Source: an uncultured Pseudomonadota bacterium (lineage in GTDB: Bacteria; Pseudomonadota; Alphaproteobacteria; RF32; CAG-239). Taken from it: 62,655 nt of DNA. A program made the position numbers and the translations under genes. The notes under the pieces were generated by a model. It did no database searches and was not told the origin of the DNA. It saw nothing but the letters and a program-made list of their open reading frames with translations. Location: assembly GCA_902763905.1 (NCBI GenBank), contig CACWUA010000002.1:6075-68729 (forward strand), read 5' to 3'. Of the stretch, positions 26,967 through 62,655 are shown piece after piece; within the stretch, counting starts at the first letter, position 1; each line of letters starts with the position of its first letter.

Positions 26967-26967
26967 T

Positions 26968-27825: not shown

Positions 27826-27851
27826 TTATCCCCCTCTTGAAATCAATAATT

Positions 27852-28255
27852 GAAGGCAATCTATAAGCCGAGTTCTGTACACAATTTGCTTTATCTCTAA
27901 AGACAAAGATTTTGTGCGATAGCTATTCATCTACGCCAAACGTTACCGCTTAGCTGGTGCGACCCACCTCTGGAGCGAGTCGGAAACATCTCGTATAGTT
28001 TAATAAAGACATTAAACTCTCCTAATTTGGTCTTACATCAGATAGGGCTTGCCTTGCCATGCGCATTACTGCACACGCGGTGAGCTCTTACCTCGCCTTT
28101 TCAACCTTACCGCGATATACGCGGCGGTAATTTTCTGCGGCGCTTTCCCGTGGATTACTCCAGCCGGACGTTATCCGGTATCTTGTTTCCGTGAAGCCCG
28201 GACTTTCCTCATCTTCGGATTTTCCTTTCCGAGACGCAGCTATCCGATTGCCTTC
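27852..28255 (-). ncRNA. rnpB: RNase P RNA, bacterial type A
   Basis: Minus strand carries GAGGAAAGTCCGGGC (P4 5' strand, 28197-28211) and ACAGAACTCGGCTTATAG (P4 3' strand). P1 closes with GAAGGCAATC (28246-28255) pairing to GATTGCCTTC (27852-27861). Confidence 0.9.
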
Positions 28256-45292: not shown

Positions 45293-45319
45293 CTGCTCAT
45301 TATTGGCAGTTCTGACAAT

Positions 45320-46480
45320 TTAGTCGGCAAACAAAGCATTAAATTCATGACTATCTTTATCCGACAAAGATGCAATAGCATTCTGCGCCGCGGTGTATAC
45401 TTTACTTTGATCTCGTAATTCCTCTGCCGAAAGTTGCGGATTAATTTTTCCCATTTCAAGCAGAATATTATATTTTAGTCTATCGAATTTGGCTTCGTTT
45501 TTATCGGAATTATCTTCAAATACACGTGCGTCTTGCACAATAAACTCATCTTGTTTGTTGTTGCCATTATCATTACCACCGTGATTGTTATCATTATCCG
45601 TCAAGGTGTCAACACTTTGTTTATTTTCATTTTCCGGCTGTTGGTGCGGTATCACACTAACGTTAAGCGTTTCCTCTTTTTCTTTTTGTTCGGTCGCCGG
45701 ATATATCACACTAACGTTAAGCGTTTCCTCTTTTTCTTTTTGTTCGGTCGCCGGAGATATCACGCCCACGTTAAGCGTATTTTCCGCATTCTCTACATTG
45801 TCATATTCTCCGGCAAGCCATGCCACATAGTCAATATTTTCTTCGAGCTTTTGCATCCGTGCAATCACTTCTGCCCGTCTTTCCGGAGTCATATTGTCAT
45901 AAACGTTCCGTAATTTATTGATATCAAATCTCTCTGCTTCAAGCTCTTGTCTGATAACAGCTTGCATATCGTCTGTGCCCAGCTCATTAAACGCCATGCC
46001 GTATTTTTCCTGCGCCAATTTATCTAATTCATCACTCCGATGACGTAAAGTCGTATTGCGCAAAAAATCATAAAACTCGATATTGGCGAGTTCGTATTGC
46101 TCACGAATATTTGTCAGACTTCTTTTTTGCAAATCGTTTGTAATTTGTTCAAGAGAAACACCTTTTTCTTTGGCATCATAATTCTTTACGGAAATATAAA
46201 TCTGTTGAGCCGGAGAAAGCTGATCAAAACTGCGTATAGTACTGAGTTCTGTGGCAGTCAATGCTTCCATATCTTCCTTGTTGTTAGCCTGTCTTATTTC
46301 TTCCAAAAACTCCTTATCCGCATCGCCTAAATCATCAGTGTGACTTTTAAAGCTCATCAGCAGTGCAGTCTGCTCATAGTCCGCAATTTGCGACAAGTTT
46401 GCAATTCCGAATTCTTTTTGAATAAAGTCTAAAAATTCTGCATTATCCTTAACATCGGAAAAATTATTATAAATAGCCAT
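45320..46480 (-). CDS. Hypothetical acidic 386-aa protein with three TLNV(S/G)VI.PATEQKEKEE repeats
   Basis: AGGAGAA RBS, strong promoter upstream, 27-nt gap to the downstream large gene. Confidence 0.7.
   Translation of the reverse strand: MAIYNNFSDVKDNAEFLDFIQKEFGIANLSQIADYEQTALLMSFKSHTDDLGDADKEFLEEIRQANNKEDMEALTATELSTIRSFDQLSPAQQIYISVKNYDAKEKGVSLEQITNDLQKRSLTNIREQYELANIEFYDFLRNTTLRHRSDELDKLAQEKYGMAFNELGTDDMQAVIRQELEAERFDINKLRNVYDNMTPERRAEVIARMQKLEENIDYVAWLAGEYDNVENAENTLNVGVISPATEQKEKEETLNVSVIYPATEQKEKEETLNVSVIPHQQPENENKQSVDTLTDNDNNHGGNDNGNNKQDEFIVQDARVFEDNSDKNEAKFDRLKYNILLEMGKINPQLSAEELRDQSKVYTAAQNAIASLSDKDSHEFNALFAD
45651..45790 (-). repeat. 54-bp x about 2.6 tandem repeat
   Basis: ATCAC anchors at 45651, 45705 and 45759. 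Confidence 0.9.
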
Positions 46481-46514
46481 GGTCGTTCTCCTGAATATAT
46501 AAATCTATACGTTC

Positions 46515-46542
46515 AGTTTAGCATATTTTTGTGTTTTGTCAA
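46515..46542 (-). promoter_or_regulatory. Sigma70-like promoter TTGACA-N16-(TGC)TAAACT
   Basis: Minus-strand -35 at 46537-46542 and extended -10 at 46515-46520. Confidence 0.55.
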
Positions 46543-46581
46543 ATATTTTCGCAAAATATTATGTTAAATTTTTGTGACAAT

Positions 46582-46607
46582 AAAAAACGGCGGATTTAAT
46601 TCCGCCG
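46582..46607 (-). terminator. Rho-independent terminator after the peroxiredoxin gene
   Basis: CGGCGGA (46588-46594) pairs with TCCGCCG (46601-46607), followed by TTTTTT on the minus strand. Confidence 0.8.
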
Positions 46608-46623
46608 CTAATGTAAAATTTTA

Positions 46624-47316
46624 TTAAATTGTCAGATTATTCGTTGCCGTTTGCGAACGCATCAAGCATCCCAATCCGCGGCATATTGCTTCGTCCAACG
46701 CCAGCAATTTATCGATAATTCGCAAGGTTTCATCAACGCTGCGCTCCATTTCTTTGTCATAAACCGCCTGATAGCGAACGGTATAGTTGCGGTCAATCAA
46801 AAAAGTTGCCCGTTGCGCCATACCGTCAGAGCGCAGAACTCCGTAGCCGCGGCTGATTTGTTTATTGATATCCGATACCAAAGGAAAACCCACCTGCCCG
46901 ATACCGCCGTCGGCCAGTGACATTTTGCGCCAAGCCGCATGCGCCGCCACCGAATCGACGCTGACCGCCACTAATTTAACTCCGCGATTGGCAAATGTTT
47001 CGTAAGCCTGATTAAAATTGCTGATTTCCAGCGGGCACACCGCCGAAAAATCCGCCAGATAAAACACGAGCAACGCATAACTGTTGCTGATATAATCAAA
47101 AAAATTAAAACTGTCGCTGATTGTGTTATCGGCAAAAACCGCCGGCGCGCTGAAATTAAGGGCTTGGCTGCCGACCCCGACCGGCGTACAAGTTTCGGTT
47201 ATGAGATTTTCCGCCACATAACTGCGTCCCAAATTGCCGGGGGAAGTACAGCCGCAGTTATCATCATCGGCACAATCGCAGCGACTGGCATAATCATATT
47301 TCCATACTTTTGACAT
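46624..47316 (-). CDS. Peroxiredoxin (AhpC/TSA family) with a Cys-rich N-terminal extension
   Basis: Peroxidatic motif FSAVCPLE. The N-terminus carries CDCADDDNCGC. Confidence 0.8.
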   Translation of the reverse strand: MSKVWKYDYASRCDCADDDNCGCTSPGNLGRSYVAENLITETCTPVGVGSQALNFSAPAVFADNTISDSFNFFDYISNSYALLVFYLADFSAVCPLEISNFNQAYETFANRGVKLVAVSVDSVAAHAAWRKMSLADGGIGQVGFPLVSDINKQISRGYGVLRSDGMAQRATFLIDRNYTVRYQAVYDKEMERSVDETLRIIDKLLALDEAICRGLGCLMRSQTATNNLTI

Positions 47317-47376
47317 ATTATCCTCCTTTTCAGAACGAAAATATGCGCAAAACCCACGATTTCAATAAATAAAAAA

Positions 47377-47633
47377 GGCACAGCGCGCTAAAAACTCGGA
47401 TAATCGCGTTAATAAGAAGAGGGATTCCGACGACAAAGCATAAGAAATTGCGCTTAAACCGCGGATAATGAGTCTGATAGAAAAAGGCTTTTTCCCGTAG
47501 TGTACAAAATTTCCGGCACAGCGCGCTAAAAACTCGGATAATTGCGTTAATACGAAGAGGGATTCCGACGACGTGTACACAAAAGGTACACGAGGAGAAA
47601 TCCCTCAAGTAGTAACCGATTAGACGAGTTTTT
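47377..47633. repeat. Modular intergenic repeat, locus 2 (with an internal duplication of about 138-bp period)
   Basis: 47377-47434 and 47515-47572 differ at 2 of 58 nt. Hairpin 47557-47606 (GAGGGATT...CGTGTAC...GTACACG...AATCCCTC). The element abuts the dnaK stop. Confidence 0.85.
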
Positions 47634-49544
47634 TTACTTTACTTCTTCGAAGTCGGCATCAACCACCCCTTCATCTTTGTTGTCAGATGAAGCGGCTCCG
47701 GCATCGGCACCCTGTTGGGCGCCTGTTGCACCTTGAGCTTGTTGCGATTTATACATAGCTTCGCCGAGTTTCATTGAGGCCTGCATCAAGGCATCGGTCT
47801 TGGACTTCAAATCTTCGAGATTTTCTTTTTCCATCGCCGCCTTGGTGTCTTCCAAAGCCTTATTGATGGCGTCTTTTTCGGACGAAGAAATCTTGTCGCC
47901 GTATTCCTTAAGGTTCTTTTCAACTTCGTGAACCAAACCTTCCGCGTGGTTTTTGGCTTCTACCAATTCCTTGCGCTGTTTATCGGCTTCGGCATTGGCC
48001 TCGGCATCTTTAACCATCTTATTGATTTCGTCGTCGCTCAAACCGCCGGAAGCTTGAATGCGAATGGCTTGTTCTTTGTTGGTGGCCTTATCTTTGGCCG
48101 AAACGTTCACAATACCGTTGGCATCAATATCGAAAGTAACTTCAATTTGCGGCATACCGCGCGGTGCCGGCGGAATACCCACCAAATCAAACTGACCGAG
48201 CAATTTGTTATGCGCGGCAATTTCGCGCTCGCCTTGGAATACGCGAATAGTAACCGCGGTTTGCCCGTCTTCGGCCGTTGAAAATACTTGGCTCTTTCTG
48301 GTTGGAATAGTGGTGTTGCGGTCAATCAAACGGGTGAACACACCACCCAGTGTTTCAATACCGAGTGACAGCGGGGTAACATCCAAAAGCAACACGTCTT
48401 TAACGTCGCCCATCAACACACCGCCCTGAATAGCGGCACCTACGGCAACAACTTCATCAGGGTTAACGCCCTTATGCGGCTCTTTGCCGAAGATTTCCTT
48501 AACTTTTTCCTGAACTTTCGGCATACGCGTCATACCGCCGACCAAGATAACTTCGCTGATGTCGCTTGCTTTCAAACCGGCATCGGCCAAAGCTTTTTTG
48601 CAAGGTTCCGCAGTTTTTTCAATCAAATCTTCAACCAAAGATTCCAATTTGGCGCGAGTTAACTTGATGTTCAAGTGTTTGGCACCCGAGCTGTCCGCCG
48701 TAATAAACGGCAGGTTAACATCGGTCTGCGTGGTGGAAGATAGTTCGATTTTGGCTTTTTCAGCCGCTTCTTTCAAACGTTGCAAAGCAAGTCTGTCGGA
48801 ACGCAAATCAATACCCTGCTCTTTTTTAAACTCATCAGCCAAATAATTCACAATGCGTTGGTCAAAGTCTTCACCGCCCAAGAAGGTATCGCCGTTGGTG
48901 GCCTTTACTTCAAACACACCATCGCCGATTTCCAAAATGGAAACATCGAACGTACCGCCGCCCAAGTCATATACCACAATGGTACCGGACGCTTTTTTAT
49001 CCATACCGTAAGCAAGCGCGGCCGCAGTCGGTTCGTTGATAATCCGCAAAACTTCCAAACCGGCGATTTTACCGGCATCTTTAGTGGCCTGACGTTGCGA
49101 ATCGTTAAAATATGCCGGCACCGTAATCACGGCCTTGTCAATGGTTTCGCCCAAATAACTCTCGGCATATTCTTTGATTTTCTGCAATACAAACGCGGAA
49201 ATTTGCGACGGAGCATATTTTTGCCCTTTAGCCTCTACCCACGCGTCGCCGTTGTCGCCGGAAATAATTTTAAACGGCGAATGTTCCTTAAATTTGCTGA
49301 CTTCAGCCGAATCATAACGACGGCCGATTAAACGCTTAATGGCAAACAGGGTATTTTCCGGATTGGTAACTGCCTGACGCTTTGCCGGATATCCGACCAA
49401 ACGCTCGGTGTCGGTAAACGCCACCATCGAAGGGGTGGTTCTTGCACCCTCGGAATTTTCCAAAACTTTGGCATCTTTGCCATCCATAACGGCAAAACAA
49501 GAGTTGGTTGTACCCAAATCGATACCGATAACTTTATTACTCAT
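47634..49544 (-). CDS. dnaK: Molecular chaperone DnaK
   Basis: [15 protein letters not shown] start preceded by AAGGAGG; full Hsp70 sequence. Confidence 0.97.
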
Positions 49545-49578
49545 TTTAATAAATCCTCCTTTTTTCTTTCTAGAGAGG

Positions 49579-49608
49579 TATATAGGGAGTAAATTTTTCC
49601 GATGCAAG
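49579..49608 (-). promoter_or_regulatory. Candidate sigma32 (RpoH) heat-shock promoter for dnaK
   Basis: Minus strand reads CTTG-N18-CCTATAT, against the alphaproteobacterial RpoH consensus CTTG-N17-CYTATNT. Confidence 0.45.
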
Positions 49609-49660
49609 TATGGCAACGATTTTTTTTATATTTTTTTGGGGTACTGTTATATATAAAGCA

Positions 49661-49691
49661 AAAAAAACCGCCTCTTTTGAGACGTTTTTTT
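49661..49691. terminator. Bidirectional hairpin terminator
   Basis: CGCCTC (49669-49674) pairs with GAGACG (49679-49684, one G-U pair), flanked by A8 and T7 runs. Confidence 0.55.
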
Positions 49692-49881
49692 ATAAATCGG
49701 CACAGCCTCGCTAAAAACTCGGATAGCGTGCGTAAATACGCAGTAAGCGGGTTGGTGCAGTGAATAATACAGCAACTAAAAATACGGAGAATGCGGTAAA
49801 TACGAAGGGTTTTTCGATAACGTGTACACAAAAGGTACACGAAGAGAAAAACCCCGAGTAGTTACCCATTATACGGATTTT
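49689..49881. repeat. Modular intergenic repeat, locus 3
   Basis: Hairpin 49807-49854 (GGGTTTTTC...CGTGTAC...GTACACG...GAAAAACCC). Same tail as locus 1. It abuts the stop of the ompA-like gene. Confidence 0.85.
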
Positions 49882-50520
49882 TTATTGAGCGTTGATGAGG
49901 TAAATTTCAACTCTGCGATTTTGTGCCCTGCCGGCTTCCGTATCATTACTGGCAATCGGTTGCTTGGAACCGGCACCGGCGGCATATAAGCGCGAACCGG
50001 CAACACCGCGCATGGCTAAATAATTGGCAACCGTGCGCGCACGACGTTCGGAAAGCGGATTATTGATTTTATCATTTCCGGTACTGTCGGTATGACCGAT
50101 AATCTGTAACTTGGTTTTGTCATATTCTTTAGCCACTTGCGCTACTGAATCAAGTACCGCATTGGCAGATGTTTTCATCACATCATTATTGGTATCAAAG
50201 GTAATGCTATTTGGCATAATCAGGCGAATGTTGTCACCGTCGCGTGCCACCTGCACACCGGTTCCGGCAAGCTTTTGACGCAGTTTGCTTTCCTGAATAT
50301 CCATATAGCCACCGGTAGCCGCACCGGCCGCGCCGCCGATACCGGCACCGATTAATGCGCCTTTTTCACCGCCGACAAGCGCACCGACACCGGCACCTAC
50401 CGCCGCACCGATACCCGTGCCCCACGCGGTTTTCGCCACTTTGCTTTCGCCGGTATAGGCATCAGTTGCACAACCGTTAAGCAACCCTAAGGCCACTAAG
50501 CATAACATAAGTTTTTTCAT
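49882..50520 (-). CDS. OmpA-family lipoprotein with a glycine-zipper N-domain
   Basis: Lipobox LLNG|C, a Gly-zipper stretch, and OmpA_C motifs (TDSTGNDKINNPLSERRA...NRRVEI). Confidence 0.9.
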   Translation of the reverse strand: MKKLMLCLVALGLLNGCATDAYTGESKVAKTAWGTGIGAAVGAGVGALVGGEKGALIGAGIGGAAGAATGGYMDIQESKLRQKLAGTGVQVARDGDNIRLIMPNSITFDTNNDVMKTSANAVLDSVAQVAKEYDKTKLQIIGHTDSTGNDKINNPLSERRARTVANYLAMRGVAGSRLYAAGAGSKQPIASNDTEAGRAQNRRVEIYLINAQ

Positions 50521-50531
50521 TTATTTTCTCC

Positions 50532-53168
50532 TTAAAAATTAGCAATGCGTGCCAAAGCTTCTTCAACTTTAGCCTTATTTTCGAGAGCCTCGGCCTGACG
50601 GCGTTTTTCTTCTGCCACAACTTTTTCCGGTGCCTTGGATACGAATTCCTTGTTATTCAACTTGCGGGCGTAACCGTCCAAGTTTTTATTCAAGGTTTCG
50701 AGCTCTTTATTGAGGCGCTCGCGCTCCGCCGCAAAATCAACCACGCCTTTAAGCGGAATTAAAATTGTAGTGTCACGACATACGGTTTGTACCATATCTT
50801 TGCTGATTTCCATATTGCCGAGCGGTGCCAATTTATCCAAACGAGCCAAATTGCAAATCAGATTATTTTGGGCAATCAGCGTTGCCAAATCAACATCGGA
50901 AGCCTTAACGTAAGCTGTTAGTTTTGCCACTGCCGGCAAATTCATTGCCGCGCGCAAAGAACGTACGGCAGAAATAAATTCAACCGCGCGGTCAATCACG
51001 CGTTTATCTTCTTCGCCGAATACCTCGTGCTGCGGCCATTCCGCCTTAATCAAGTCAACTTCGCGCGTTGTCAGATTATTCCACAACTCGGTTGTAACAA
51101 ACGGCATAAACGGGTGCAGAATTATCAAAATTCTATCCAATACCCATGCGGCCGTAGCTCTGGTTTCATTGATTTTCTCGTCACTGCCGCCGTAAAATAT
51201 CGGCTTGGTCAATTCAATATACCAATCGCAGAAAGTACCCCAAACAAACTGATACACCGCATTTGCCGCATCGGAAAAACGATAATTGTTCAAATTGTCG
51301 GTAACGTTTTTGGTGGCCTCTTTAGCTTTGGCAACAATCCACTTGTTAATAGGGAACTTAACATTTTTAATGTCAAAATCCTTAACCGAATAGCACTGAT
51401 TTATTTCACAAAAACGGGCGGCATTCCACAGTTTGGTGGCAAAATTGCGATAGCCCTGAATGCGCGAATCCGAAAGGTTGATGTCGCGTCCTTGGGTTTC
51501 CGACGAAGCCATAAAGAAACGCAAAGCATCGGCACCGTATTTTTCGATGGTTTCCATCGGGTCAACGGTATTGCCTTTGGATTTACTCATTTTGCGTCCC
51601 TGTTCGTCGCGTACCAAACCGTGAATATAGCACTTTTTGAACGGAACGCGCTTCATCATGTACATACTCATCATCATCATGCGGGCAACCCAGAAAAAGA
51701 TGATATCAAAGCCGGTAACCAATACCGAAGTCGGATAAAATGTTTTTAAGTATTCGGTAGCTTCCGGCCAACCCAAAGTAGAAAATGCCCATAATCCCGA
51801 AGAAAACCACGTATCCAATACGTCGGTTTCGCGACGTAACTCAACGTGTTTTCCATAGTGTTTATCGGCCGCCGCTTGTGCTTCTTCTTCGTTTTCTTCG
51901 CAGAAAATCGTTTCATCCGGACCATACCAAATCGGCATCTGATGTCCCCACCAAAGCTGGCGCGAAATGCACCACGGCTGAATATTGTTCATCCATTCAA
52001 AATAAGTTTTTTCATAAACCGCCGGCACAAATTCCATTTCTTTATCATGAACGGCGCGGCGTGCTTCCACCGCCAATTTCGGAGCATCAACAAACCATTG
52101 GTCGGTCATATACGGCTCGATTACCACACCGCTGCGGTCGCCGTACGGAATCACCATCGGATGGTCTTCGATTTTTTCCATCAGCCCGAGTTTTTCCAAC
52201 TCTTCAATAGTCTTAACGCGCGCTTCTTGTGTTGTCATACCGGCATATGGAGTGTTTTCGTTAAGGGTGGCATTCGAATTTAAAATGTTAATCATCGGCA
52301 GATTATGACGCTTACCGACTTCAAAGTCGTTAAAGTCGTGCGCCGGCGTAATCTTTACCGCACCCGTACCCTTTTCCGGATCGGCGTGATCGTCGGCAAT
52401 AATCGGAATAACGCGATTGGCAATCGGCAAAATGCAGTTTTTACCAATGAGATGTTTCAACTTCGGATTATCTTTGGAAACTGCCACCGCCGTATCGCCG
52501 AACATGGTTTCCGGACGCGTGGTGGCAATATGGATAAATTCATTCGGATTATCCTCCAACGGATATTTGTAATAATACATTTTACCCACAGTTTCTTTTT
52601 GTACCACTTCCAAGTCGGAAACCGCGGTTTCGAGTGCCGGATCCCAGTTAACCAACTTTTTAGCCTTATAAATCAGGCCGTCTTTATAGAGAGAGACAAA
52701 GATTTTGCGAACGGCGCGGGAAAGCCCCTCATCCATGGTAAAACGCTCGCGGCTCCAATCACACGAAGCACCCAAGCGGCGTAACTGTTTACAAATGGTG
52801 CCGCCGGATTGTTTTTTCCATTCCCAAACGGTTTCGATGAATTTTTCGCGTCCCAAATCGTGGCGAGTTAAGCCCTGTTTGGCCAAATTGCGCTCCACCA
52901 CCATCTGCGTGGCAATACCGGCATGGTCTGTCCCCGGCTGCCATAAAACTTTTTTGCCGAGCATACGATTATAGCGGATTAAAATATCCTGCAACGTATT
53001 ATCAAGCGCGTGCCCCATATGCAGCACACCGGTAACGTTCGGCGGCGGAATCACGATGGAAAACGCCTCTTTGTCTGAACGCATATCAGGTTGAAAAGCG
53101 CCCGTTTTTTCCCATTTTTCATAAATTTTTTCTTCAAATTCCTTCGGATTATAGTTTTTCTCTAACAT
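50532..53168 (-). CDS. valS: Valine--tRNA ligase
   Basis: HMGH (HIGH-type) and KMSKS motifs plus a C-terminal coiled coil. The ATG at 53168 is preferred because of its purine-rich RBS. Confidence 0.95.
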   Translation of the reverse strand: MLEKNYNPKEFEEKIYEKWEKTGAFQPDMRSDKEAFSIVIPPPNVTGVLHMGHALDNTLQDILIRYNRMLGKKVLWQPGTDHAGIATQMVVERNLAKQGLTRHDLGREKFIETVWEWKKQSGGTICKQLRRLGASCDWSRERFTMDEGLSRAVRKIFVSLYKDGLIYKAKKLVNWDPALETAVSDLEVVQKETVGKMYYYKYPLEDNPNEFIHIATTRPETMFGDTAVAVSKDNPKLKHLIGKNCILPIANRVIPIIADDHADPEKGTGAVKITPAHDFNDFEVGKRHNLPMINILNSNATLNENTPYAGMTTQEARVKTIEELEKLGLMEKIEDHPMVIPYGDRSGVVIEPYMTDQWFVDAPKLAVEARRAVHDKEMEFVPAVYEKTYFEWMNNIQPWCISRQLWWGHQMPIWYGPDETIFCEENEEEAQAAADKHYGKHVELRRETDVLDTWFSSGLWAFSTLGWPEATEYLKTFYPTSVLVTGFDIIFFWVARMMMMSMYMMKRVPFKKCYIHGLVRDEQGRKMSKSKGNTVDPMETIEKYGADALRFFMASSETQGRDINLSDSRIQGYRNFATKLWNAARFCEINQCYSVKDFDIKNVKFPINKWIVAKAKEATKNVTDNLNNYRFSDAANAVYQFVWGTFCDWYIELTKPIFYGGSDEKINETRATAAWVLDRILIILHPFMPFVTTELWNNLTTREVDLIKAEWPQHEVFGEEDKRVIDRAVEFISAVRSLRAAMNLPAVAKLTAYVKASDVDLATLIAQNNLICNLARLDKLAPLGNMEISKDMVQTVCRDTTILIPLKGVVDFAAERERLNKELETLNKNLDGYARKLNNKEFVSKAPEKVVAEEKRRQAEALENKAKVEEALARIANF

Positions 53169-53231
53169 TTTTCTTTCCATAAATTAAAATTGTTGCGCAT
53201 AAATTCAAACAAAAGGGAGGAAGAAACCTTT

Positions 53232-53528
53232 TCAGGCTTTATTTTCTTCCTTTACGCGCACTCGACCGACCTCAGAGCGGCAGGTACCGAAATATTGACG
53301 ATATTTTTTCATCATCTTTTTTGCCACATCGTCAAAGCTCCATACCCCCATTTTATACGGAATATCCTCGCGTTTCACCAACATCTTTTTAGATAAAACG
53401 AACACATCATCCTCCGGACGTTTACCGCGATAAAACGATTGGAAATAAGTTTTCCTTTCGTTGTTTACAATGGCTGCCCGAATATTTTTCAAGATATCGT
53501 CGATCGACTCCTCTTGTGTGTTATCCAT
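53232..53528 (-). CDS. Short DUF2497/PopZ-like protein (N-terminal motif only)
   Basis: EESIDDILKNIRAAI resembles the PopZ/DUF2497 N-terminal motif (E.sMEEILasIRrII). Conserved neighbourhood next to valS. Confidence 0.45.
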   Translation of the reverse strand: MDNTQEESIDDILKNIRAAIVNNERKTYFQSFYRGKRPEDDVFVLSKKMLVKREDIPYKMGVWSFDDVAKKMMKKYRQYFGTCRSEVGRVRVKEENKA

Positions 53529-53720
53529 AAAATTATACTCCGAGTTAAAATATCAACTGGGGTGGATTGTAGCAAAATTTATTTTAATTAGCAACTGTTT
53601 TTATCCGTTTTTTCGCAATTATAGCCTTATAGGAAATCCATATTTTTTGACAAAAAGCTTGACTTACAACATAAATATGATAAGATTAACCTGTATTGAA
53701 GATAAACAGGAGCTCTGATC

Positions 53721-55427
53721 ATGGATAACTGCGAAAAAAAACAAAAAATCGAACAAATCAAAAAGGGTATTGAAACAGGTAGCAAAATTGCCGGTAAAGT
53801 CGGTAAAAAAATCTTGGAAGCAACCGGTGAAACCGCCAAGAAAACGTATCAAAAATACAAAAAACTTAATAAAGCAGCTAAGAAAGATTTACACAGCGGT
53901 TTACTTGTCGCCGGAGGTGTTATCGGACTTTCCGGCTTGATATATACAAGTAAATATATGCCTGATAATCAGCAGGAATCATTGATTCAAAGCCATAATG
54001 CCAAGGTTGATTCTGTTATGGCGGCATTGACCAAAACCTACAAAATAACCGACAAAGAAAGTATCATGGAACTTTATAGGGCATCTCTGCCTCTGATACA
54101 AGCTTCGATGATTCCAACAGAGATATTTATTGCTCATGGTTATAACGACGGAACCGGCAGCTCTGCAAATTCCGTCGGTATAGGCATGTTTGAGCTTCCT
54201 GTGGACGGCAACCCAAACACTCCTGAATGGATTTCTACCAGCGAATACTTGAAAAAAAACCCTGAAACAACTGTTGATTTTAAAAAAGCATTAGACTTTG
54301 TGAACTGGTATTTCACAATTCGAAAAGAAAACGGCATAAAAGGACAGAGATTGGAAATGATGTATCGACACCTTAAAGGAGCCGAAGTTAACCCGCACCA
54401 ATTTACGGCCTTAGCCACATGCACTTTCAACGGTCCAGCCCGAGGATACAAATTTTGTGATTATGTCCGCGAAAATTATAACAATCCCATAGCATGCGCT
54501 CACTATTTGACTACTCTTGAACCTCGCAGAAAAGACTGCCGAGACGGCATTCTGGTGCGCCACACTTCCGAAGCTTGCATGTTTATGTATCCGGAATATG
54601 CCCTTGCCACATATTCATTTAAACAAAAAGAAGGTATAAACAGCAAAGGTGTGAAATATTATATAACATCGGTTAATCAAACTACTCCTACACAATGCAT
54701 AAAGGTTCGAGAAGATTTAGCCAAAGGTAGTACAAAAGAATTAGCTCAACATCGCAATCACATTATAAAATATGTCTGCAAAGGCGGTCAATCTATTATT
54801 GATTTGGCAAATACGATTAAAGACGAGAAAGCAAAAGCTGATTTCTTGCGCTACTATACGGGAGAAACCACTGCGATATTCGAAAACTCTCGTGCTGAAA
54901 TCACTTATGACGCCGCACTTAAAGAATATAATGCCGGCAACTATGAAAAAGCGTTGGAAGGCTTCCAAAAACTACGGGCAAACGGCTATGACGGTGCAGA
55001 TTTACGCAACGATATTGCCATTACACATTATAATCTGGGACACTATAAAGAATGTATCGAAGAATGCCGTTCCGTCTTGCAAACCGGAGAAAAACATGAA
55101 TACGCAAAAGCTACATATAATGCCGGAAAATCTTATGAGGCAATGGGCGAATATGAGAACGCATATAAAAATTATGAGCGTTCGGTGATTATGGGGGAAA
55201 AGTATCGCGCCAACGACACCATAATGAAAATATACAAAAAAGCCATACAGCGAACGGATAGTATTATCAAAAGTCTGCAGCCTCAGACAAAAAATGCGGT
55301 GCAAAGAGCTCAGAAGAATGTTATCAGTAAAACATCGTCTAAGGCTCACAAAACAGTTAAGCCGACAACGAAGTCAAAATCCAATATGAATACACAGATG
55401 GCAAAGCAATCAAAACGCGGGCGATAG
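53721..55427 (+). CDS. Membrane-anchored lysozyme-like (GH24-like) protein with C-terminal TPR repeats and a basic tail
   Basis: TM LLVAGGVIGLSGLIY. TEIFIAHGYNDGTGSSANSVGIG matches E....Y.D..G..T.G.G, and HQFTALATCTFNG matches the q..AL.S..FN.G pattern. TPR-like AEITYDAALKEYNAGNYEKALEGF... Confidence 0.45.
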   Translation: MDNCEKKQKIEQIKKGIETGSKIAGKVGKKILEATGETAKKTYQKYKKLNKAAKKDLHSGLLVAGGVIGLSGLIYTSKYMPDNQQESLIQSHNAKVDSVMAALTKTYKITDKESIMELYRASLPLIQASMIPTEIFIAHGYNDGTGSSANSVGIGMFELPVDGNPNTPEWISTSEYLKKNPETTVDFKKALDFVNWYFTIRKENGIKGQRLEMMYRHLKGAEVNPHQFTALATCTFNGPARGYKFCDYVRENYNNPIACAHYLTTLEPRRKDCRDGILVRHTSEACMFMYPEYALATYSFKQKEGINSKGVKYYITSVNQTTPTQCIKVREDLAKGSTKELAQHRNHIIKYVCKGGQSIIDLANTIKDEKAKADFLRYYTGETTAIFENSRAEITYDAALKEYNAGNYEKALEGFQKLRANGYDGADLRNDIAITHYNLGHYKECIEECRSVLQTGEKHEYAKATYNAGKSYEAMGEYENAYKNYERSVIMGEKYRANDTIMKIYKKAIQRTDSIIKSLQPQTKNAVQRAQKNVISKTSSKAHKTVKPTTKSKSNMNTQMAKQSKRGR

Positions 55428-55478
55428 TTATACTTTTATCATTAATTATCAGCCGATTATTTATTCCGCCGCAAAAAC

Positions 55479-55516
55479 AAAAAAATCCGCAGAGATTATT
55501 TCTCCGCGGATTTTTA
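55479..55516. terminator. Bidirectional terminator between convergent genes
   Basis: ATCCGCAGAG pairs with CTCCGCGGAT (one mismatch), flanked by A- and T-runs. Confidence 0.65.
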
Positions 55517-55534
55517 TGTATATATGTAACATTT

Positions 55535-56896
55535 TTATTCGTCTTCAATCGACAAACTCAACCACTTACCGCGTGTATTGTAGTAATTTGCTTCCGCATC
55601 ATAATAGTTGACATTAAGTCCCATTTTTTCAGCGGTCAGTTTACCCATCGACTGCATCAATTGCAAACCGGCAACATAGTAGTCGTGGCGTGCTTTAACT
55701 TCATTTACTTGCGATTGCAGCAAAGTCTGATATGCATTCAATACATCTAACACCGTACGATTACCCAAAGACTCTTCTTTTTGTGTTCCTTCCAAAGCAA
55801 TTGCCGAAGCTTTAACCTGCTCGCCGATAGATGCAATATTCGACTTACTGGTCTGCATCAGCGCCCAGTTTGCCGTAACACCGGAAACCACCGCACGTTC
55901 TGCCTCTTGCAATTTTTCCCGTGCCTCCCAACGCTGATATTTACTCTTGCGAATATTGGCTCTGGTAGCACCACCTGTATATAAAGGCACCGTCATATTA
56001 ATCGTATATTCCGTGCTATGTGTAGACGGATCGCGTCCGGTATGGGTAGAATTTTCGCTGCGTCCCGAAGCTGCAGTAAAACTAACTTCCGGCAACAGTG
56101 CTCCTTCTTGGCTCTTTACATTATATTTTGCCGCTTTCATCGCACGTTTTGCCGCATTCAGCGTATAATTATTCTGTATGGCATATTTCATGGCTTCTTT
56201 TTCCGTAACTGGGAAACGCTCGCTTAAATTATCAGGAAACTTAACATCTTCCGGTAAATGTCCGACGATACGATGATAGTAGTCACGCGAAACGGCCAAA
56301 TTACCTTCCGCCGACACCACATCTGACTGTGCCTGAGCATAACTGGCTCTGGATTGCGCTACGTCGGTACGCGTTACTTCTCCGACTTTATAGCGGGCCA
56401 TAGTCTCATCAAGTTGCTTTTTCAGCAGATTTTCATTGTTTTTCTGTAGCTTTACAATTGCTTCGTCACGCACTACATCCAAGTAAGAGGTCGAGGCGCC
56501 CAGCAATATTTCCTGCTCGACGGCATACAATGTATCTATACCGGATTTTGCCCGTTGATCTGCAGCTTTTACACCGTGATAAGTTTGGCCACCGCTGAAT
56601 AAAGACTGCTTGATTGCACCGTTGTAACCCTTAGTGTATCCGTCAACAGTCGGATTACCGGTGGTGTGTCTGTGCGTATCAGAATAACTTCCTCCGGCAG
56701 TAATGGTCGGACGAAAACCTGACCGTGCCAAAGCGGCATCTTCGTTTGCAGCTCCGCTTGTGGCGCGCTGACCGTGTAATGTCGGATTGGTATTATATGC
56801 CGCCGACATAGCTTCAAAAATTGTCTCGGCATCGGCGGAAAAACTTATCAACACGCAGGCCGCAGTCATTGTCAAAATCTTACTTATATAATTCAT
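55535..56896 (-). CDS. tolC: TolC-family outer-membrane efflux protein
   Basis: Signal peptide from the Met at 56896. Two OEP repeats with typical coiled-coil pattern. Confidence 0.85.
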   Translation of the reverse strand: MNYISKILTMTAACVLISFSADAETIFEAMSAAYNTNPTLHGQRATSGAANEDAALARSGFRPTITAGGSYSDTHRHTTGNPTVDGYTKGYNGAIKQSLFSGGQTYHGVKAADQRAKSGIDTLYAVEQEILLGASTSYLDVVRDEAIVKLQKNNENLLKKQLDETMARYKVGEVTRTDVAQSRASYAQAQSDVVSAEGNLAVSRDYYHRIVGHLPEDVKFPDNLSERFPVTEKEAMKYAIQNNYTLNAAKRAMKAAKYNVKSQEGALLPEVSFTAASGRSENSTHTGRDPSTHSTEYTINMTVPLYTGGATRANIRKSKYQRWEAREKLQEAERAVVSGVTANWALMQTSKSNIASIGEQVKASAIALEGTQKEESLGNRTVLDVLNAYQTLLQSQVNEVKARHDYYVAGLQLMQSMGKLTAEKMGLNVNYYDAEANYYNTRGKWLSLSIEDE

Positions 56897-57054
56897 TGTA
56901 TTATCTCGCATTTCCTTTCTTTGCTCTAAGCTTATAGAGTAGATTTTAAAAAAAATAAATGATAAGTTTAAAGTTATCTTCAATTTATAAATAAAAGTGC
57001 TATATTGTTAAATAATTTTCAATCAATTTTACATATATATCAGTATAAATCGGT

Positions 57055-59418
57055 ATGTTAAAATATTATGGGAGATATACATTGAAAGAAGAAAAATACT
57101 TGAACGTGTTGGATGCCGCCAGATTGAAACTTTCCATCGAACACTATATTAAATATTTTATCGGCAAACGTGCCTGCGAAATTACCAAAGAAGAGGCATT
57201 TAACGTGGTTGCTTTGGCTGTACGCGAATTTGCCATGGATAAAATGTACGAAACAATCGCGCGCTACAATCGTGTCGGTTCAAAACGTATTTATTATCTC
57301 TCCATAGAATATCTGATCGGACGTTCGCTCGAAAACAATTTGTATAATCTGGGCTTATATGATATATTAAAAAGTATCAAAATCGACGGCTGGCCGGATC
57401 TATCATTACAGGAAATTTTTGATGCGGAATATGATCCCGCTCTCGGTAACGGAGGTTTGGGACGCTTGGCTGCCGGATACCTCGACTCGATGGCTTCACT
57501 CGGTATTCCGGGGTTTGGTTACGGCATCAACTATCAATTCGGATTATTTAAGCAAAAATTTGAAAACGGTTATCAGGTAGAGCAAGCGGACAGCTGGTTG
57601 GAAGAAAATTCCCCTTGGCAATTTGCCAGATATGATCGCACTGTTACCATCCCTATAGGCGGACACGTAGAAATGTATACAAAACCTGACGGTAAAATCG
57701 GTTATATATGGGCCGATACGCACCGTCTCTACGGCGTACCTTATGATTTTCCGATTGTCGGATATGATGGAAAATCGGTCAATTATTTACGCCTGTTTTC
57801 GGCCAAAACCGATGAAGAACTGGACTTAAACATTTTTAACAGCGGCGGTTACATTGAAGCGGTGCGTGATAAAATTCGCACCGAAACGATTTCTAAAGTG
57901 CTTTACCCGTCAGATAACGTTGTTTCCGGAAAAGAATTGCGTCTGGCGCAACAATACTTCTTTGTTTCTTGTGCAATTCAAGATATTATTCGTCGCTTTT
58001 TGGAAAAGAGCAACGATTTCAGTAAGCTGCCTGATTATGTCTGCATTCAGCTTAACGACACTCATCCGGCGCTGGCTATTGTCGAAATGATGCGGCAATT
58101 GCTTGATGTATATAACCAAGAATGGGACGAATCGTGGGATATTGTTACCAAAGTTTTTGCTTATACCAACCACACATTATTGCCGGAGGCACTGGAAAAA
58201 TGGCCAAGCAATATTATAAGTCATTATTTGCCGCGGCACTTGCAGATTATTTATGAAATCAACCGTCGCTTTATGGAATTTGCGCGTTCACGCTTTGGAG
58301 ATGATGTGTATAAATTGGGTAAAGTCGCGATTGTAGACGGTGAAGGCGATAATCAGGTCATTCGCATGGCAAACCTATCGATTGTCGGCTCTTTTTCAGT
58401 AAACGGCGTGGCTAAGTTACATACTGAACTGGTTAAGCATTCTTTGGTACCGGAATTTTATGAATTATGGCCGGAGAAGTTTCATAACATTACCAACGGA
58501 ATTACACCGCGGCGCTGGTTATTGCACGCCAATAATAATTTGGCAATGTTAATTTGTGATAAAATAGGCATAGACTGGATTACGGATCTTGATTTGCTGC
58601 GCTCGCTAGAAAAATACAGCAATGATAAATCTTTCATAAAGAAGTTTCGTGAAATTAAGCTGGCCAATAAGCGGCGTTTGGTACAAAACGCATACAAAGC
58701 TACCCGCATTATGATTAATCCGGAAAGCATGTGTATTGTACACGCCAAACGTATTCATGAATATAAGCGTCAATTAATGACTGTTTTGCAGATCATCGGT
58801 GATTATTTGGCAATAATCAATGATCATGTACGCCCGATTACGCCGAAAACTTATATATTTGCCGGCAAGGCGGCTCCTTCATACAGCTTAGCCAAGTTGA
58901 TTATAAAATTAATCAATAACGTAGCCGAAGTAATCAATAATGATCAGCGTGTGGACGGCTTGCTTAAAGTTGTGTTTATCCCGGATTACAAAGTATCTGT
59001 TGCCGAATATCTTATTCCGGCCGCAGATTTGAGCTGTCAGGTTTCAACTGCGGGGTTTGAAGCATCGGGCACAAGCAATATGAAATTTGCTTTAAACGGA
59101 GCTCTGACCATTGGAACTTACGACGGAGCAAACATAGAAATCCGCGAGGCGGTAGGAGAAGATAACTTCTATTTATTCGGTCTGACCGAAGATGAAATCC
59201 GCAAACGTCGTATGAACTATAATCCGCGTGAAATTTATGAAAAATCAGAATACATCAAGCGTATTTTGAATGCAGTCAATTCTGCGATGTTTGCCGATGC
59301 CAACTATCCGCAGCAGTTTACGCCGATTTTTGATTTGCTCTTAAACAGCGATTACTACTTTATTTTAGCTGACTTAGAAGACTTCAACAAAACAATTCAT
59401 CCGGAGGCTTTTCTATGA
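57055..59418 (+). CDS. glgP: Glycogen/maltodextrin phosphorylase, C-terminally truncated at the compositional junction
   Basis: EASGTSNMKFALNG holds the PLP-binding Lys. The ORF ends soon after ...YYFILADLEDF and lacks the conserved C-terminal segment ending in the FSSDR(T/S)I region. Confidence 0.85.
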   Translation: MLKYYGRYTLKEEKYLNVLDAARLKLSIEHYIKYFIGKRACEITKEEAFNVVALAVREFAMDKMYETIARYNRVGSKRIYYLSIEYLIGRSLENNLYNLGLYDILKSIKIDGWPDLSLQEIFDAEYDPALGNGGLGRLAAGYLDSMASLGIPGFGYGINYQFGLFKQKFENGYQVEQADSWLEENSPWQFARYDRTVTIPIGGHVEMYTKPDGKIGYIWADTHRLYGVPYDFPIVGYDGKSVNYLRLFSAKTDEELDLNIFNSGGYIEAVRDKIRTETISKVLYPSDNVVSGKELRLAQQYFFVSCAIQDIIRRFLEKSNDFSKLPDYVCIQLNDTHPALAIVEMMRQLLDVYNQEWDESWDIVTKVFAYTNHTLLPEALEKWPSNIISHYLPRHLQIIYEINRRFMEFARSRFGDDVYKLGKVAIVDGEGDNQVIRMANLSIVGSFSVNGVAKLHTELVKHSLVPEFYELWPEKFHNITNGITPRRWLLHANNNLAMLICDKIGIDWITDLDLLRSLEKYSNDKSFIKKFREIKLANKRRLVQNAYKATRIMINPESMCIVHAKRIHEYKRQLMTVLQIIGDYLAIINDHVRPITPKTYIFAGKAAPSYSLAKLIIKLINNVAEVINNDQRVDGLLKVVFIPDYKVSVAEYLIPAADLSCQVSTAGFEASGTSNMKFALNGALTIGTYDGANIEIREAVGEDNFYLFGLTEDEIRKRRMNYNPREIYEKSEYIKRILNAVNSAMFADANYPQQFTPIFDLLLNSDYYFILADLEDFNKTIHPEAFL

Positions 59419-59996
59419 ACATCTGTGTATTCGGCGCTTCTTCCGAGCGCATTGATCCCGCCTGTTTTGCCGACGCGCAGGAGCTCGGGGCGCTGATTGC
59501 CCGGGGCGGGCACCGTCTCGTATTCGGCGCGGGGCGGGAGGGGCTGATGGGCGCCTGCGCCCGCGGCGTACTGCAGGAGGGCGGCAGGCCGCTCGGCATC
59601 GCGCCGCGCTTTTTTGACGAGCCCGGCGTCCTGCTGCACGACGGCTGCGAGCTTCTTTTCACTGAGACCGTGGCCGAGCGCAAAAGTCTCATGGAAGAGG
59701 CGGCGGACGCCTTCATCGCCCTGCCGGGCGGAATCGGAACCTATGAGGAATTCTTCGAGGCGCTGACGCTCAAGCAGCTCGGCTGCCACCAAAAGCCCAT
59801 GGCGCTGCTCAATACCCTCGGCTGCTTTGACGCCCTCGACGCCCTCCTGCGCGGTACGGCGGAGCGGGGTTTCATGAGCGCGGAAGTATTGGGACTGTAT
59901 GCCCTGTGCAACACGCCGCAGGCTGCTCTCGATCACGTCACACGGCCTGTGAGCGCGCCGTCCGCGCCGCGGCCTTTGAGCGAATACAGCCGATAA
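59415..59996 (+). CDS. LOG-family (TIGR00730) nucleotide phosphoribohydrolase
   Basis: GAGREGLMG and LPGGIGTYEEFFE motifs. GGAGG RBS at 59402-59406. GC-rich codon usage. Confidence 0.85.
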   Translation: MNICVFGASSERIDPACFADAQELGALIARGGHRLVFGAGREGLMGACARGVLQEGGRPLGIAPRFFDEPGVLLHDGCELLFTETVAERKSLMEEAADAFIALPGGIGTYEEFFEALTLKQLGCHQKPMALLNTLGCFDALDALLRGTAERGFMSAEVLGLYALCNTPQAALDHVTRPVSAPSAPRPLSEYSR

Positions 59997-60104
59997 CGCC
60001 CCCCGCCTGACCTTGTTTTCCGTTTTTTTCTTTATGGGCTATTGAATTGAGCTTGTTTTTTTGATAGTATAGGTTATTAAAAAAAAGAAAAGCTGAAAAC
60101 GAAT

Positions 60105-62114
60105 ATGAAAAACAAGGACTGGAACATCCCATATACCAGGCCCTGTGTTTCGCGCGACCTCGCAGAGGCGGGTTTTTCACCGCTTCTGTGCCAGGTTCTC
60201 GCGCTGCGCGGGGTCGACAGCGCGGAAAAGGCCCGGCGTCTCCTGTATGGCGGGAAGGAATCCCTCTGCGATCCGATGCTCATGCTCGGCATGGACAAGG
60301 CGCGGGACCGGGTTCTGCGCGCCATTGAGCGGAAGGAGACCGTGGCGGTCTACGGCGACTATGACGTGGACGGCATCACCTCCACCTGTATGCTGACGGA
60401 CTGGCTGCGCGGCAAGGGCCTCACCTGCTATTACTATATCCCCGACCGGAATGAAGAGGGCTACGGGCTCAACTGCCTTGCGCTGGATTCTCTCAAGGCC
60501 CGGGGCGTGACGCTGGTCATCACGGTGGACTGCGGCATCACCGCCGTGGAGGAGGCCGCCCATGCCCGGGAAATCGGCGTGGACATGGTCATCACCGACC
60601 ACCATGAGTGCAGGCCGGACGCCCTGCCCGACGCCGTTGCCGTCGTGGACTGCAAGCAGGAGGGGGACGCTTACCCCAACAAGAGTCTCGCCGGGGTGGG
60701 CGTGGCGCTCAAGCTGGTCTGCGCCTGCGAGGGCGAATCCGACACCGTCCTGGAGCGCTACGCAGATCTCGCCGCCATCGGCACGGTGGCCGATGTAATG
60801 CCTCTGACCGAGGAAAACCGCTATCTCGTCCGACTCGGTCTCGAACAGATCGCCCGCAAGCCGAGGCCGGGTCTTGCCGCCATGCTGCGGGAATCGGCGA
60901 TCTCTCCGGCGCGCCTTACCGCCTCGACCATCGGCTTCAGTCTCGCCCCCCGGCTCAACGCGGCGGGCAGACTTGGCAGGGCTTCCGTCGCGGCAAAGCT
61001 CATTCTGAGCCGGGATGAGAACGTCGCCGCCTCCCTCGCCCGTGACCTGTGCGAGCTCAACCGCCGCCGTCAGAGCATTGAGAACGAGATCTGGAAGGAG
61101 GCAAACGCCCAGCTTGCCGGGAAGAAGGTCGACGGGCCCATCGTGCTGGCGAGCGAGCGCTGGAACCAGGGTGTGATCGGGATTGCGGCCTCCCGCCTTG
61201 CCGAGCAGTATTCCCTGCCCGCCATCATCGTCTGTCTCAACGGCGACGTCGGAAAGGGCTCCTGCCGCAGCTACGGCGGCTTCAATCTCTATGAGGCGCT
61301 CTCTGCCTGCTCGGATCAGCTCATCGGTTTCGGCGGGCACGCGCTGGCGGCGGGTCTGAACGTCCGGCGCGAGAAGCTGGAGGATTTCCGCGCCGCCCTG
61401 CGCGAATACTACAACGCGAACAAGCCCGAGCCTGTCCCGGAGGTGCAGTGTGATCTGCTCATCACGGATCCCGCCCTTCTTTCGCTGGACAACGTCCGCT
61501 CCCTCGATCTGCTGGAGCCTTACGGGAACGCAAATCCCAAGCCTCTCATGTGCATGAGCGGGGTGACGCTGGAGTCCCTGAGCGAGGTGGGCGGCGGCAA
61601 GCACGCCCGTTTTCGCGTCCGTCTGGGCGCGTCCTCCTTTGAATGTATTTTCTTCTCTCACAGCGCCGGCGATACCGGCGTGCGGGAGGGTGAACAGATC
61701 GATATCGCCTTTACCCCGCAGGTCAACGAGTACCGCGGCAACGTGACGGTACAGCTTGTCGCCGCCGCGGTGAGGCCCCACGATCCCCGCGCGCTGTGCA
61801 ACGCGATCCTGCACAATGAGGCGTCCTGTCTCTGGGCCGCGGCCGGCTACTGCCCGGAGCGTCCTGATTTTGTACGCATATGGCGCGGCATGAAGCCCGG
61901 CTTCCGGGTCGGCGCCGATACCGACGGGGTTCTCGCCCAGTGCCTGCGGGATATGGAGCCGGAAAAGTACAGTCTCTGTCTTATGGTCCTGAAGGAAACC
62001 GGCCTGCTCAGCGGCGGGACGGACGGGATTTACGGGGCGCAGCCGGCGCAGATTTCCGGCAAAGCCGATCTGGAGGCAACAACGCTTATCCGCAGTCTGC
62101 GGAGTTATCAGTAA
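60105..62114 (+). CDS. recJ: Single-stranded-DNA-specific exonuclease RecJ
   Basis: DHH motifs (VYGDYDVDGITS, TVDCG, ITDHH) and DHHA1 (GGHALAAG). Confidence 0.93.
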   Translation: MKNKDWNIPYTRPCVSRDLAEAGFSPLLCQVLALRGVDSAEKARRLLYGGKESLCDPMLMLGMDKARDRVLRAIERKETVAVYGDYDVDGITSTCMLTDWLRGKGLTCYYYIPDRNEEGYGLNCLALDSLKARGVTLVITVDCGITAVEEAAHAREIGVDMVITDHHECRPDALPDAVAVVDCKQEGDAYPNKSLAGVGVALKLVCACEGESDTVLERYADLAAIGTVADVMPLTEENRYLVRLGLEQIARKPRPGLAAMLRESAISPARLTASTIGFSLAPRLNAAGRLGRASVAAKLILSRDENVAASLARDLCELNRRRQSIENEIWKEANAQLAGKKVDGPIVLASERWNQGVIGIAASRLAEQYSLPAIIVCLNGDVGKGSCRSYGGFNLYEALSACSDQLIGFGGHALAAGLNVRREKLEDFRAALREYYNANKPEPVPEVQCDLLITDPALLSLDNVRSLDLLEPYGNANPKPLMCMSGVTLESLSEVGGGKHARFRVRLGASSFECIFFSHSAGDTGVREGEQIDIAFTPQVNEYRGNVTVQLVAAAVRPHDPRALCNAILHNEASCLWAAAGYCPERPDFVRIWRGMKPGFRVGADTDGVLAQCLRDMEPEKYSLCLMVLKETGLLSGGTDGIYGAQPAQISGKADLEATTLIRSLRSYQ

Positions 62115-62655
62115 TGGAGAAAGCCATGGATACGCAGGAACTGAAAAACAATATACAAGACCCCGACGCTCAGTTTGAGGCGCTTGTCCAGAAGATTGAG
62201 GACGGTACCCACAGCATGGACATGGGCCGCATCCGCGCCGCCTATGACATGGCGAAGATGGCCCACGCCGGTCAGAAACGGAAGGACGGCTCCCCCTATG
62301 TGACGCACTGCATCGCCGCCGCCGACATCAGCGTGGACATCGGTCTGGATGAGGATTCCATCATCGCGGCCCTGCTGCATGACGTGATCGAGGACACCAG
62401 CCTCACCCACGCGGACATTGCCAAGCAGTTCGGCCCCGCGGTGGCCGATATTGTGGAGGGTGTCACCAAGCTGACGCGGGTGCAGTACACCAGCAAGGAG
62501 GACGAGCAGGCGGAAAACCTGCGCAAGATGCTCCTTGCGATGGCAAAGGACATCCGCGTGGTGCTCATCAAGATCGCCGACCGCCTCCACAACATGCGCA
62601 CCATGGCCTACCAGACGCCGGAGAAGCAGAAATCCAAGTCGCTGGAGACCATGGA
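62114..62655 (+). CDS. relA: Bifunctional (p)ppGpp synthetase/hydrolase RelA/SpoT, 3'-partial (not in the supplied ORF track)
   Basis: My own translation from the ATG at 62114 (TAATG overlap with recJ): MEKAMDTQ...HAGQKRKDGSPYVTHCI...ALLHDVIEDT...ADRLHNMRT, which is the HD hydrolase domain. It runs off the window. Confidence 0.9.
   Translation, partial: MEKAMDTQELKNNIQDPDAQFEALVQKIEDGTHSMDMGRIRAAYDMAKMAHAGQKRKDGSPYVTHCIAAADISVDIGLDEDSIIAALLHDVIEDTSLTHADIAKQFGPAVADIVEGVTKLTRVQYTSKEDEQAENLRKMLLAMAKDIRVVLIKIADRLHNMRTMAYQTPEKQKSKSLETM

Follow-up and report, generated by a model that had tools for sequence, protein, structure and literature searches.

A Probable Inter-Genome Chimeric Contig Joining Alphaproteobacterial and Oscillospiraceae DNA at a Shared 20-mer in glgP

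Introduction

Shared k-mers link the assembly graphs of different genomes and lead to chimeric contigs in which these genomes are mixed (review, PMC7299287). Inter-genome chimeric contigs of short-read metagenomes have unrelated flanks, an abrupt change in G+C content, codon use and tetranucleotide composition, a gene cut short by the join, a switch of genome in a short word present in both, and a short low-abundance piece at the contig end. The 62,655-nt stretch analyzed here (the window; contig CACWUA010000002.1 of assembly GCA_902763905.1, positions 6,075–68,729), in which a glycogen phosphorylase gene (glgP) runs into LOG, recJ, and relA genes of different composition, shares all of these features and shows no anatomical difference from such contigs. 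As judged from sequence comparison, the window is very probably a chimeric contig, in which about 59.4 kb from an alphaproteobacterium and about 3.25 kb from a member of the Oscillospiraceae were joined in silico.

Two biological systems are also similar in part. Horizontally acquired genomic islands have a sharp compositional boundary and may interrupt a host gene, as seen here, but the window differs from them in having no mobility genes, tRNA or flanking repeats, in carrying core genes in the donor order, and in holding a segment that is absent from near-identical strains and shows only one of its two boundaries. With homology-facilitated or microhomology-mediated illegitimate recombination, the junction would likewise be within 20 nt of identity. 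It is, however, a biological process that needs fixation in the population, whereas here the same clone is found uninterrupted in an independent assembly.

Crossover Between Two Genomes

The window consists of left-parent sequence, followed by a 20-mer common to both parents, followed by right-parent sequence. The parts of the window and the gene that spans them are:

1–59381: left-parent-only segment, about 42% G+C (from contig identity of 99.1–100% and the names of GlgP homologues)
59382–59401: crossover interval, the exact 20-mer CTTCAACAAAACAATTCATC common to both parents (from alignment; the parent of origin is not assignable inside it)
59402–62655 (window end): right-parent-only segment, 62.9% G+C (from the alignments of contigs L020 and L004, named homologues and synteny)
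57055–59418, plus strand: chimeric glgP open reading frame (ORF), 787 aa; residues 1–782 are native, and the last five (PEAFL) and the stop derive from the other genome (translation compared with contig L001)

The left parents (L001/L002) read GACTTAGAAGA, then the 20-mer, then GGGCAGAAG, and the right parents (L004 and L007) read TATACTATT, then the same 20-mer, then CGGAGGCTTTTCTATGAAC. The 20-mer is also present in two further left contigs, L028 and L029. The left genome has it inside glgP, and the right genome has it in the intergenic leader of LOG, 13 nt ahead of the start codon. The two flanks are from different organisms, each continues differently in independent assemblies, and a short exact word of about assembler-k size, common to both parents, stands at the crossover.

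The 20-mer occurs once in the window, where no occurrence is expected by chance, even with two mismatches allowed. Scans of two public collections gave three matches in 596 Gb of reference genomes and six in a metagenome contig collection. The DNA matched was in every case unrelated (among others, that of Puniceicoccales and Smithella), and neither parent turned up at the 20-mer in these collections. These counts are about equal to the random expectation of approximately one match per 4^20/2, or about 0.5 Tb. Because the matches are so few and near chance level, the 20-mer is neither a repeat nor the end of a mobile element. For a pair of genomes of about 2.5 Mb, the same calculation gives on the order of ten 20-mers in common by chance alone, so the precondition for a misjoin at small k is commonplace.

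Left Parent

Contigs of the left parent were found by exact-sequence look-up of two neighboring left-hand proteins. Their identity to the window up to position 59401 is as follows:

L001/L027: ERZ27280026, contig k141_91305, 62.7 kb, 100% identical
L002: ERZ1029111, contig k87_5002468, 59.4 kb, 99.95% identical
L028: ERZ1048161, scaffold_1246, 62.1 kb, 99.1% identical
L029: ERZ1029116, contig k87_43342739, 34.8 kb, 99.1% identical

These four independent contigs (L001, L002, L028, and L029) come from four assemblies, and in all four the match to the window stops at exactly 59401. L001 and L002 align over 43667–59401, and L028 and L029 over 45527–59401. Past 59401, 4/4 read GGGCAGAAGAGGACTATATAAAC (GGGCAGAAGAGG in their continuation), which gives a full 828-aa GlgP. 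In its native context glgP is followed by genes for a GT2 glycosyltransferase, lpxI, lpxB, and comEC, in DNA of 39.5% G+C. By the record coordinates, the L001 contig reaches about 40 kb past the junction.

The agreement with the window is that of nearly the same clone. L001 has 100% identity to it over 13.7 kb. The sample of L001 also yielded contig L021, which is 99.995% identical over 14199–35866 (21.7 kb). Within the tested 14199–35866 and 43667–59401, which are colinear with independent contigs, no further chimeric joins were found in the left part.

The first-pass annotation of this DNA had called the left flank alphaproteobacterium-like, and the GlgP homologues bear this out, those with 82–87% identity being named "Alphaproteobacteria bacterium" (metagenome-assembled genomes, MAGs). 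Contigs colinear with the left part encode LpxC, LpxI, and LpxB, and the left segment itself encodes TolC:

55535–56983, minus strand: TolC-family outer-membrane protein, a gene of the left flank

The left side is an uncultured alphaproteobacterium, probably of ruminant-gut origin.

Right Parent

The right-hand segment carries the following features:

59403–59407, plus strand: GGAGG ribosome-binding site native to LOG, kept upstream of LOG in L004, L005, L006, L007, and L020
59415–59996, plus strand: complete LOG/TIGR00730 gene, 193 aa (TIGR00730, 148.5 bits; PF03641)
60105–62114, plus strand: complete recJ, 669 aa (TIGR00644, 528 bits; DHH, DHHA1, and RecJ_OB domains)
62114–62655, plus strand: 5' fragment of relA/spoT with HD domain, first 180 codons (TIGR00691 positions 1–138; PF13328), cut by the window end

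In length, LOG and RecJ agree with their homologues (about 193 aa for nearly all listed LOG proteins, about 669 aa for those of RecJ). Where the source gives a name, LOG and RecJ are 65–76% identical to proteins named Oscillospiraceae bacterium (MAGs), and the window RecJ is 98% identical to protein P0241. The closest right contigs are L020 (Logan SRR6874844), with 96.5% nucleotide identity over 59386–62655, where the window ends, and L004, with 95.8% over 59382–60387. In L005, L006, and L007 the LOG is 85–88% identical, and their alignments begin at about 59382–59403 and extend rightwards only. The same holds for the whole set: all five independent contigs of the right-hand organism or its close relatives (L004, L020, L005, L006, and L007; LOG protein 85–98% identical) match the window only from 59382–59403 rightwards. 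Upstream of LOG these contigs have other, G+C-rich DNA, unlike the window. In L005 and L007, the only two with an upstream family match, the upstream gene is a divergent permease matching PF11449 (ArsP_2).

The gene order ArsP_2 (minus strand), LOG, recJ, relA, dtd, MBL hydrolase, pfk is conserved in longer contigs (from ArsP_2 to dtd in L017–L019), and contigs of the L017–L019 type carry a LOG protein named by NCBI as coming from an Oscillospiraceae MAG. The right segment is an ordinary piece of Oscillospiraceae (Firmicutes/Bacillota) core chromosome, which the window joins in the LOG leader, 13 nt short of the start codon.

The right flank had been described as G+C-rich and Firmicutes-like, and the named LOG and RecJ homologues place it in Oscillospiraceae; a separate taxonomy for each flank, which had been proposed as a check, gives Alphaproteobacteria on the left and Oscillospiraceae on the right by homologue names. 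The TAATG coupling reported earlier is present at recJ/relA, where the recJ stop overlaps the relA ATG (62112–62116), and L020 has the same overlap. The GGAGG of LOG does overlap the end of glgP as reported, but it lies at 59403–59407 and not at 59402–59406.

Antisense ORFs of 179, 545, and 160 aa (59397–59936, 60177–61814, and 62108–62590, all on the minus strand) overlap LOG, recJ, and relA, respectively. No Pfam match was found for the antisense ORFs of this 63% G+C segment, and they were rejected as genes: they have no family match and stand opposite well-supported genes, and spurious ORFs are usual in high-G+C DNA.

Compositional Break

The break in composition is real. G+C is 42.2% in 1–59401 vs. 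62.9% in 59402–62655, and the 1-kb profile of the left part stays at 34–50% throughout. The largest G+C step in the whole window (+0.262 between adjacent 500-nt blocks) is at 59431, the runner-up being 0.178. The counts given by the first-pass annotation, 17/60 in 59341–59400 and 44/60 in 59461–59520, were exact on recount. It had placed the switch at 59380–59420 on the basis of G+C; the break stands, but its limits are set by sequence, the crossover being 59382–59401.

The profiles that had been suggested for each side agree. The three genes on the left have a GC3 (G+C at third codon positions) of 0.38–0.43 and the three on the right one of 0.78–0.84 (about 0.4 vs. about 0.8). In tetranucleotide profile, the right segment is 19.5 standard deviations (z = 19.5) off the centroid of 18 left chunks of equal size. 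The composition of the right segment is without any sign of amelioration.

Truncation of glgP

The truncation of glgP is confirmed as real and unusual. The ORF of the window covers positions 3–760 of 804 in TIGR02093 (1010 bits), compared to 3–804 of 804 for the native copy in L001, and has no full-length match to TIGR02093/PF00343 that includes the C-terminal region. The 120 best database matches are all 810–847 aa long. The native GlgP of L001 has 828 aa, covers the whole family profile and ends with DFNKTIH followed by RAEEDYINKDLWTKKAIMNVARIGYFSSDRSVMEYAKEIWNIKPVE and the stop; past NKTIH, the native protein reads from DFNKTIH into RAEEDYINKDLW. The GlgP of the window has lost 46 native residues. 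The loss of the conserved C-terminus noticed earlier is therefore borne out by the profile and by the lengths of homologues. The tail NKTIHPEAFL, which had been taken as foreign, is so in part: PEAFL and the stop are foreign, but NKTIH is native GlgP according to the L001 translation.

The gene itself is a true glgP, and the ORF as found in the window is cut short by the artefact. By-products of the join are the truncated GlgP with its PEAFL tail and stop, the apparent ATGA stop/start coupling of glgP and LOG, and the position of the ribosome-binding site "inside" glgP.

Origin of the Join

The parents overlap by an exact single-copy 20-mer at the switch, which points to a misjoin in a k-mer graph. 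The shared 20-mer would be a single node (or a k-1 overlap) linking the two genomes in a de Bruijn or overlap graph with a smallest k of about 20–21. If the true continuations were pruned, e.g., because of low or uneven coverage, the path of the contig could enter on one genome and leave on the other. We infer that the join was made by an assembler, and likewise which assembler and which k were involved.

The two organisms have been recovered from the same studies and have a common habitat, with left-type and right-type contigs both present in the ERZ27280026/ERZ27280208 series, in the ERZ1029111/ERZ1029114/ERZ1029116 series and in "STEW19-1" rumen samples. The default smallest k of IDBA-UD is 20, and usage of "--mink 20" has been seen (bioRxiv 10.1101/212506). 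The label STEW19-1 appears to refer to the cattle-rumen study of Stewart et al. (2019; PMC6785717), as suggested by the label and by k87_ contig names that fit a MEGAHIT k-list of 27...87. In this study co-assemblies were made by MEGAHIT with the k-list 27...87, and single samples were assembled by IDBA-UD with k left unset (PMC6785717). It may be conjectured that the window comes from an assembly of this type.

Several points weigh against an in silico join. The case is built from assembled contigs, not from reads. Assemblers that step through several k values usually undo a 20-nt link at the larger ones, so that the in silico reading needs an extra condition (a local coverage gap or pruning). 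L020, a close relative of the right parent, has three mismatches in the 20-mer, and the presence of the exact 20-mer in the window's own right-hand strain is presumed from L004 and L007. Finally, the window ends 3.25 kb past the join, inside relA, and a return of alphaproteobacterial sequence is not visible.

The same 20-nt junction would be left by microhomology-assisted illegitimate recombination, i.e., by a genuine horizontal transfer in which an Oscillospiraceae chromosomal segment of 3.25 kb or more (LOG-recJ-relA) was integrated into the alphaproteobacterial glgP. The habitat shared by the two organisms and the continuous window sequence, which has no Ns, would agree with such an event. 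It is nevertheless very unlikely, since nearly the same clone has an intact glgP (L001 and, from its sample, L021, with the identities given above), as do three further assemblies. The putative insert is housekeeping DNA of the core genome with the gene order native to Oscillospiraceae; it starts in its own intergenic leader, and its G+C and GC3 are wholly unameliorated. This agrees with the earlier view that recJ and relA are improbable cargo for transfer. The genes that would have been transferred are LOG, recJ, and relA, with no integrase or transposase among them; no tRNA genes were found in the whole 62.6-kb window, and terminal, direct or inverted repeats in 57000–62655 are only short and at chance level. 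A mobile-element boundary was rejected on these grounds. The junction was also found in no other record, either by exact look-ups of the truncated GlgP, LOG, and RecJ or by the 20-mer scans of the two collections; an independent genome with glgP-LOG adjacency had been named beforehand as evidence that would speak against a chimera, and as none was found the chimera is not refuted. If such a transfer were true, it would mean a very recent movement of housekeeping genes between phyla that inactivated the C-terminus of glycogen phosphorylase in a rumen alphaproteobacterial strain.

The join could also have been made before assembly or after it, though neither is likely. In library PCR or whole-genome amplification, a template switch at the 20-nt microhomology would give chimeric molecules that the assembler then followed, and these would have the same signature, a crossover in a shared short word, so that reads are needed to tell them from an in silico join. 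Each such molecule is, however, rare and would have to prevail over the native path in the graph, there is no evidence that amplification was used, and an overlap of 20 nt equals the smallest k of common assemblers, which makes the in silico route simpler; an in vitro origin is accordingly improbable, if somewhat less so than a true transfer. Blunt concatenation, in which two contigs of a contaminated bin or two chosen sequences were set end to end, would agree with a right piece that is short (3.25 kb) and located at the very end of the window, and MAG files do hold contaminant contigs. Pasting would, however, leave the joint without a common word or with two copies of it, and not with an exact single-copy 20-mer common to the parents. 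A random joint would show 20 identical nt with a probability of about 4^-20 (about 1e-12), and there is no run of Ns. Concatenation is the least credible of these explanations, and, given the single-copy 20-nt overlap, blunt or deliberate concatenation and binning were rejected as the joining mechanism. Among the kinds of artefact offered by the first-pass annotation, assembly chimera fits, but binning does not join sequences and deliberate concatenation does not agree with the overlap. Its more general proposal, an artefactual join of two unrelated genomes, is supported by the different continuations of both flanks in independent assemblies.

Implications for Annotation

The join is almost certainly an artefact and not a biological feature, and the finding matters for quality control rather than for biology. 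No inference should link genes across 59382–59401; the earlier warning to this effect is justified by the way in which the flanks continue elsewhere. Annotation errors invited by the window include a glgP regarded as a short variant, glgP-LOG regarded as a translationally coupled operon, and Firmicutes-type recJ and relA credited to an alphaproteobacterium. If the contig sits in a MAG, its last 3.25 kb are contamination and should be cut at 59382–59401. The window also offers a worked example of how comparison of each flank with independent public assemblies can, without reads, locate a chimeric join to single-base precision and provide a mechanism for it (the shared 20-mer).

Other Features of the Left Part

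A complete class A RNase P RNA is present at 27848–28255 on the minus strand (RF00010, 269 bits, model positions 1–367 of 367). It is located between lpxC and a gene for an outer-membrane beta-barrel protein, the flanks being assigned by colinearity with L021.

Several tandem repeats occur in coding regions. A 117-nt repeat with 2.0 copies and 90% match (25921–26159) is in the ORF 25866–26978 (minus strand), and the colinear gene of L021 has matches to PF13525 YfiO and TPR. Four independent contigs (L023–L026) end in or beside this repeat, at window positions 26023–26187, and L022 aligns there in two gapped pieces; the repeat evidently breaks short-read assemblies. A 54-nt (18-codon) repeat at 45650–45778, in the ORF 45320–46480 (minus strand), varies in copy number among near-identical strains: L001 aligns here in two overlapping pieces, as if it had one unit fewer, and L002 aligns ungapped. 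Further in-frame repeats are found at 5426–5570, 8874–9065, and 42821–42916 (45 nt x 3.2, 54 nt x 3.6, and units of 15–33 nt). The large ORFs that hold them, 1874–5917, 7116–9080, and 42086–45292, look like genes for surface or secreted proteins.

At about 36680–36750, within the kilobase of lowest G+C in the window (33.8%), the ERZ27280026 contigs k141_1214222 and k141_91305 abut with a gap of about 75 nt, as deduced from the record coordinates, and the window is unbroken there. By the same kind of coordinates, the end of one of these two contigs is about 90 nt away from window position 1, suggesting a window start near a natural contig end. The region 53721–55427 (plus strand) encodes a 568-aa protein with lysine-rich ends, without family assignment and with only a weak C-terminal TPR match, and its identical sequence is kept across several rumen assemblies.

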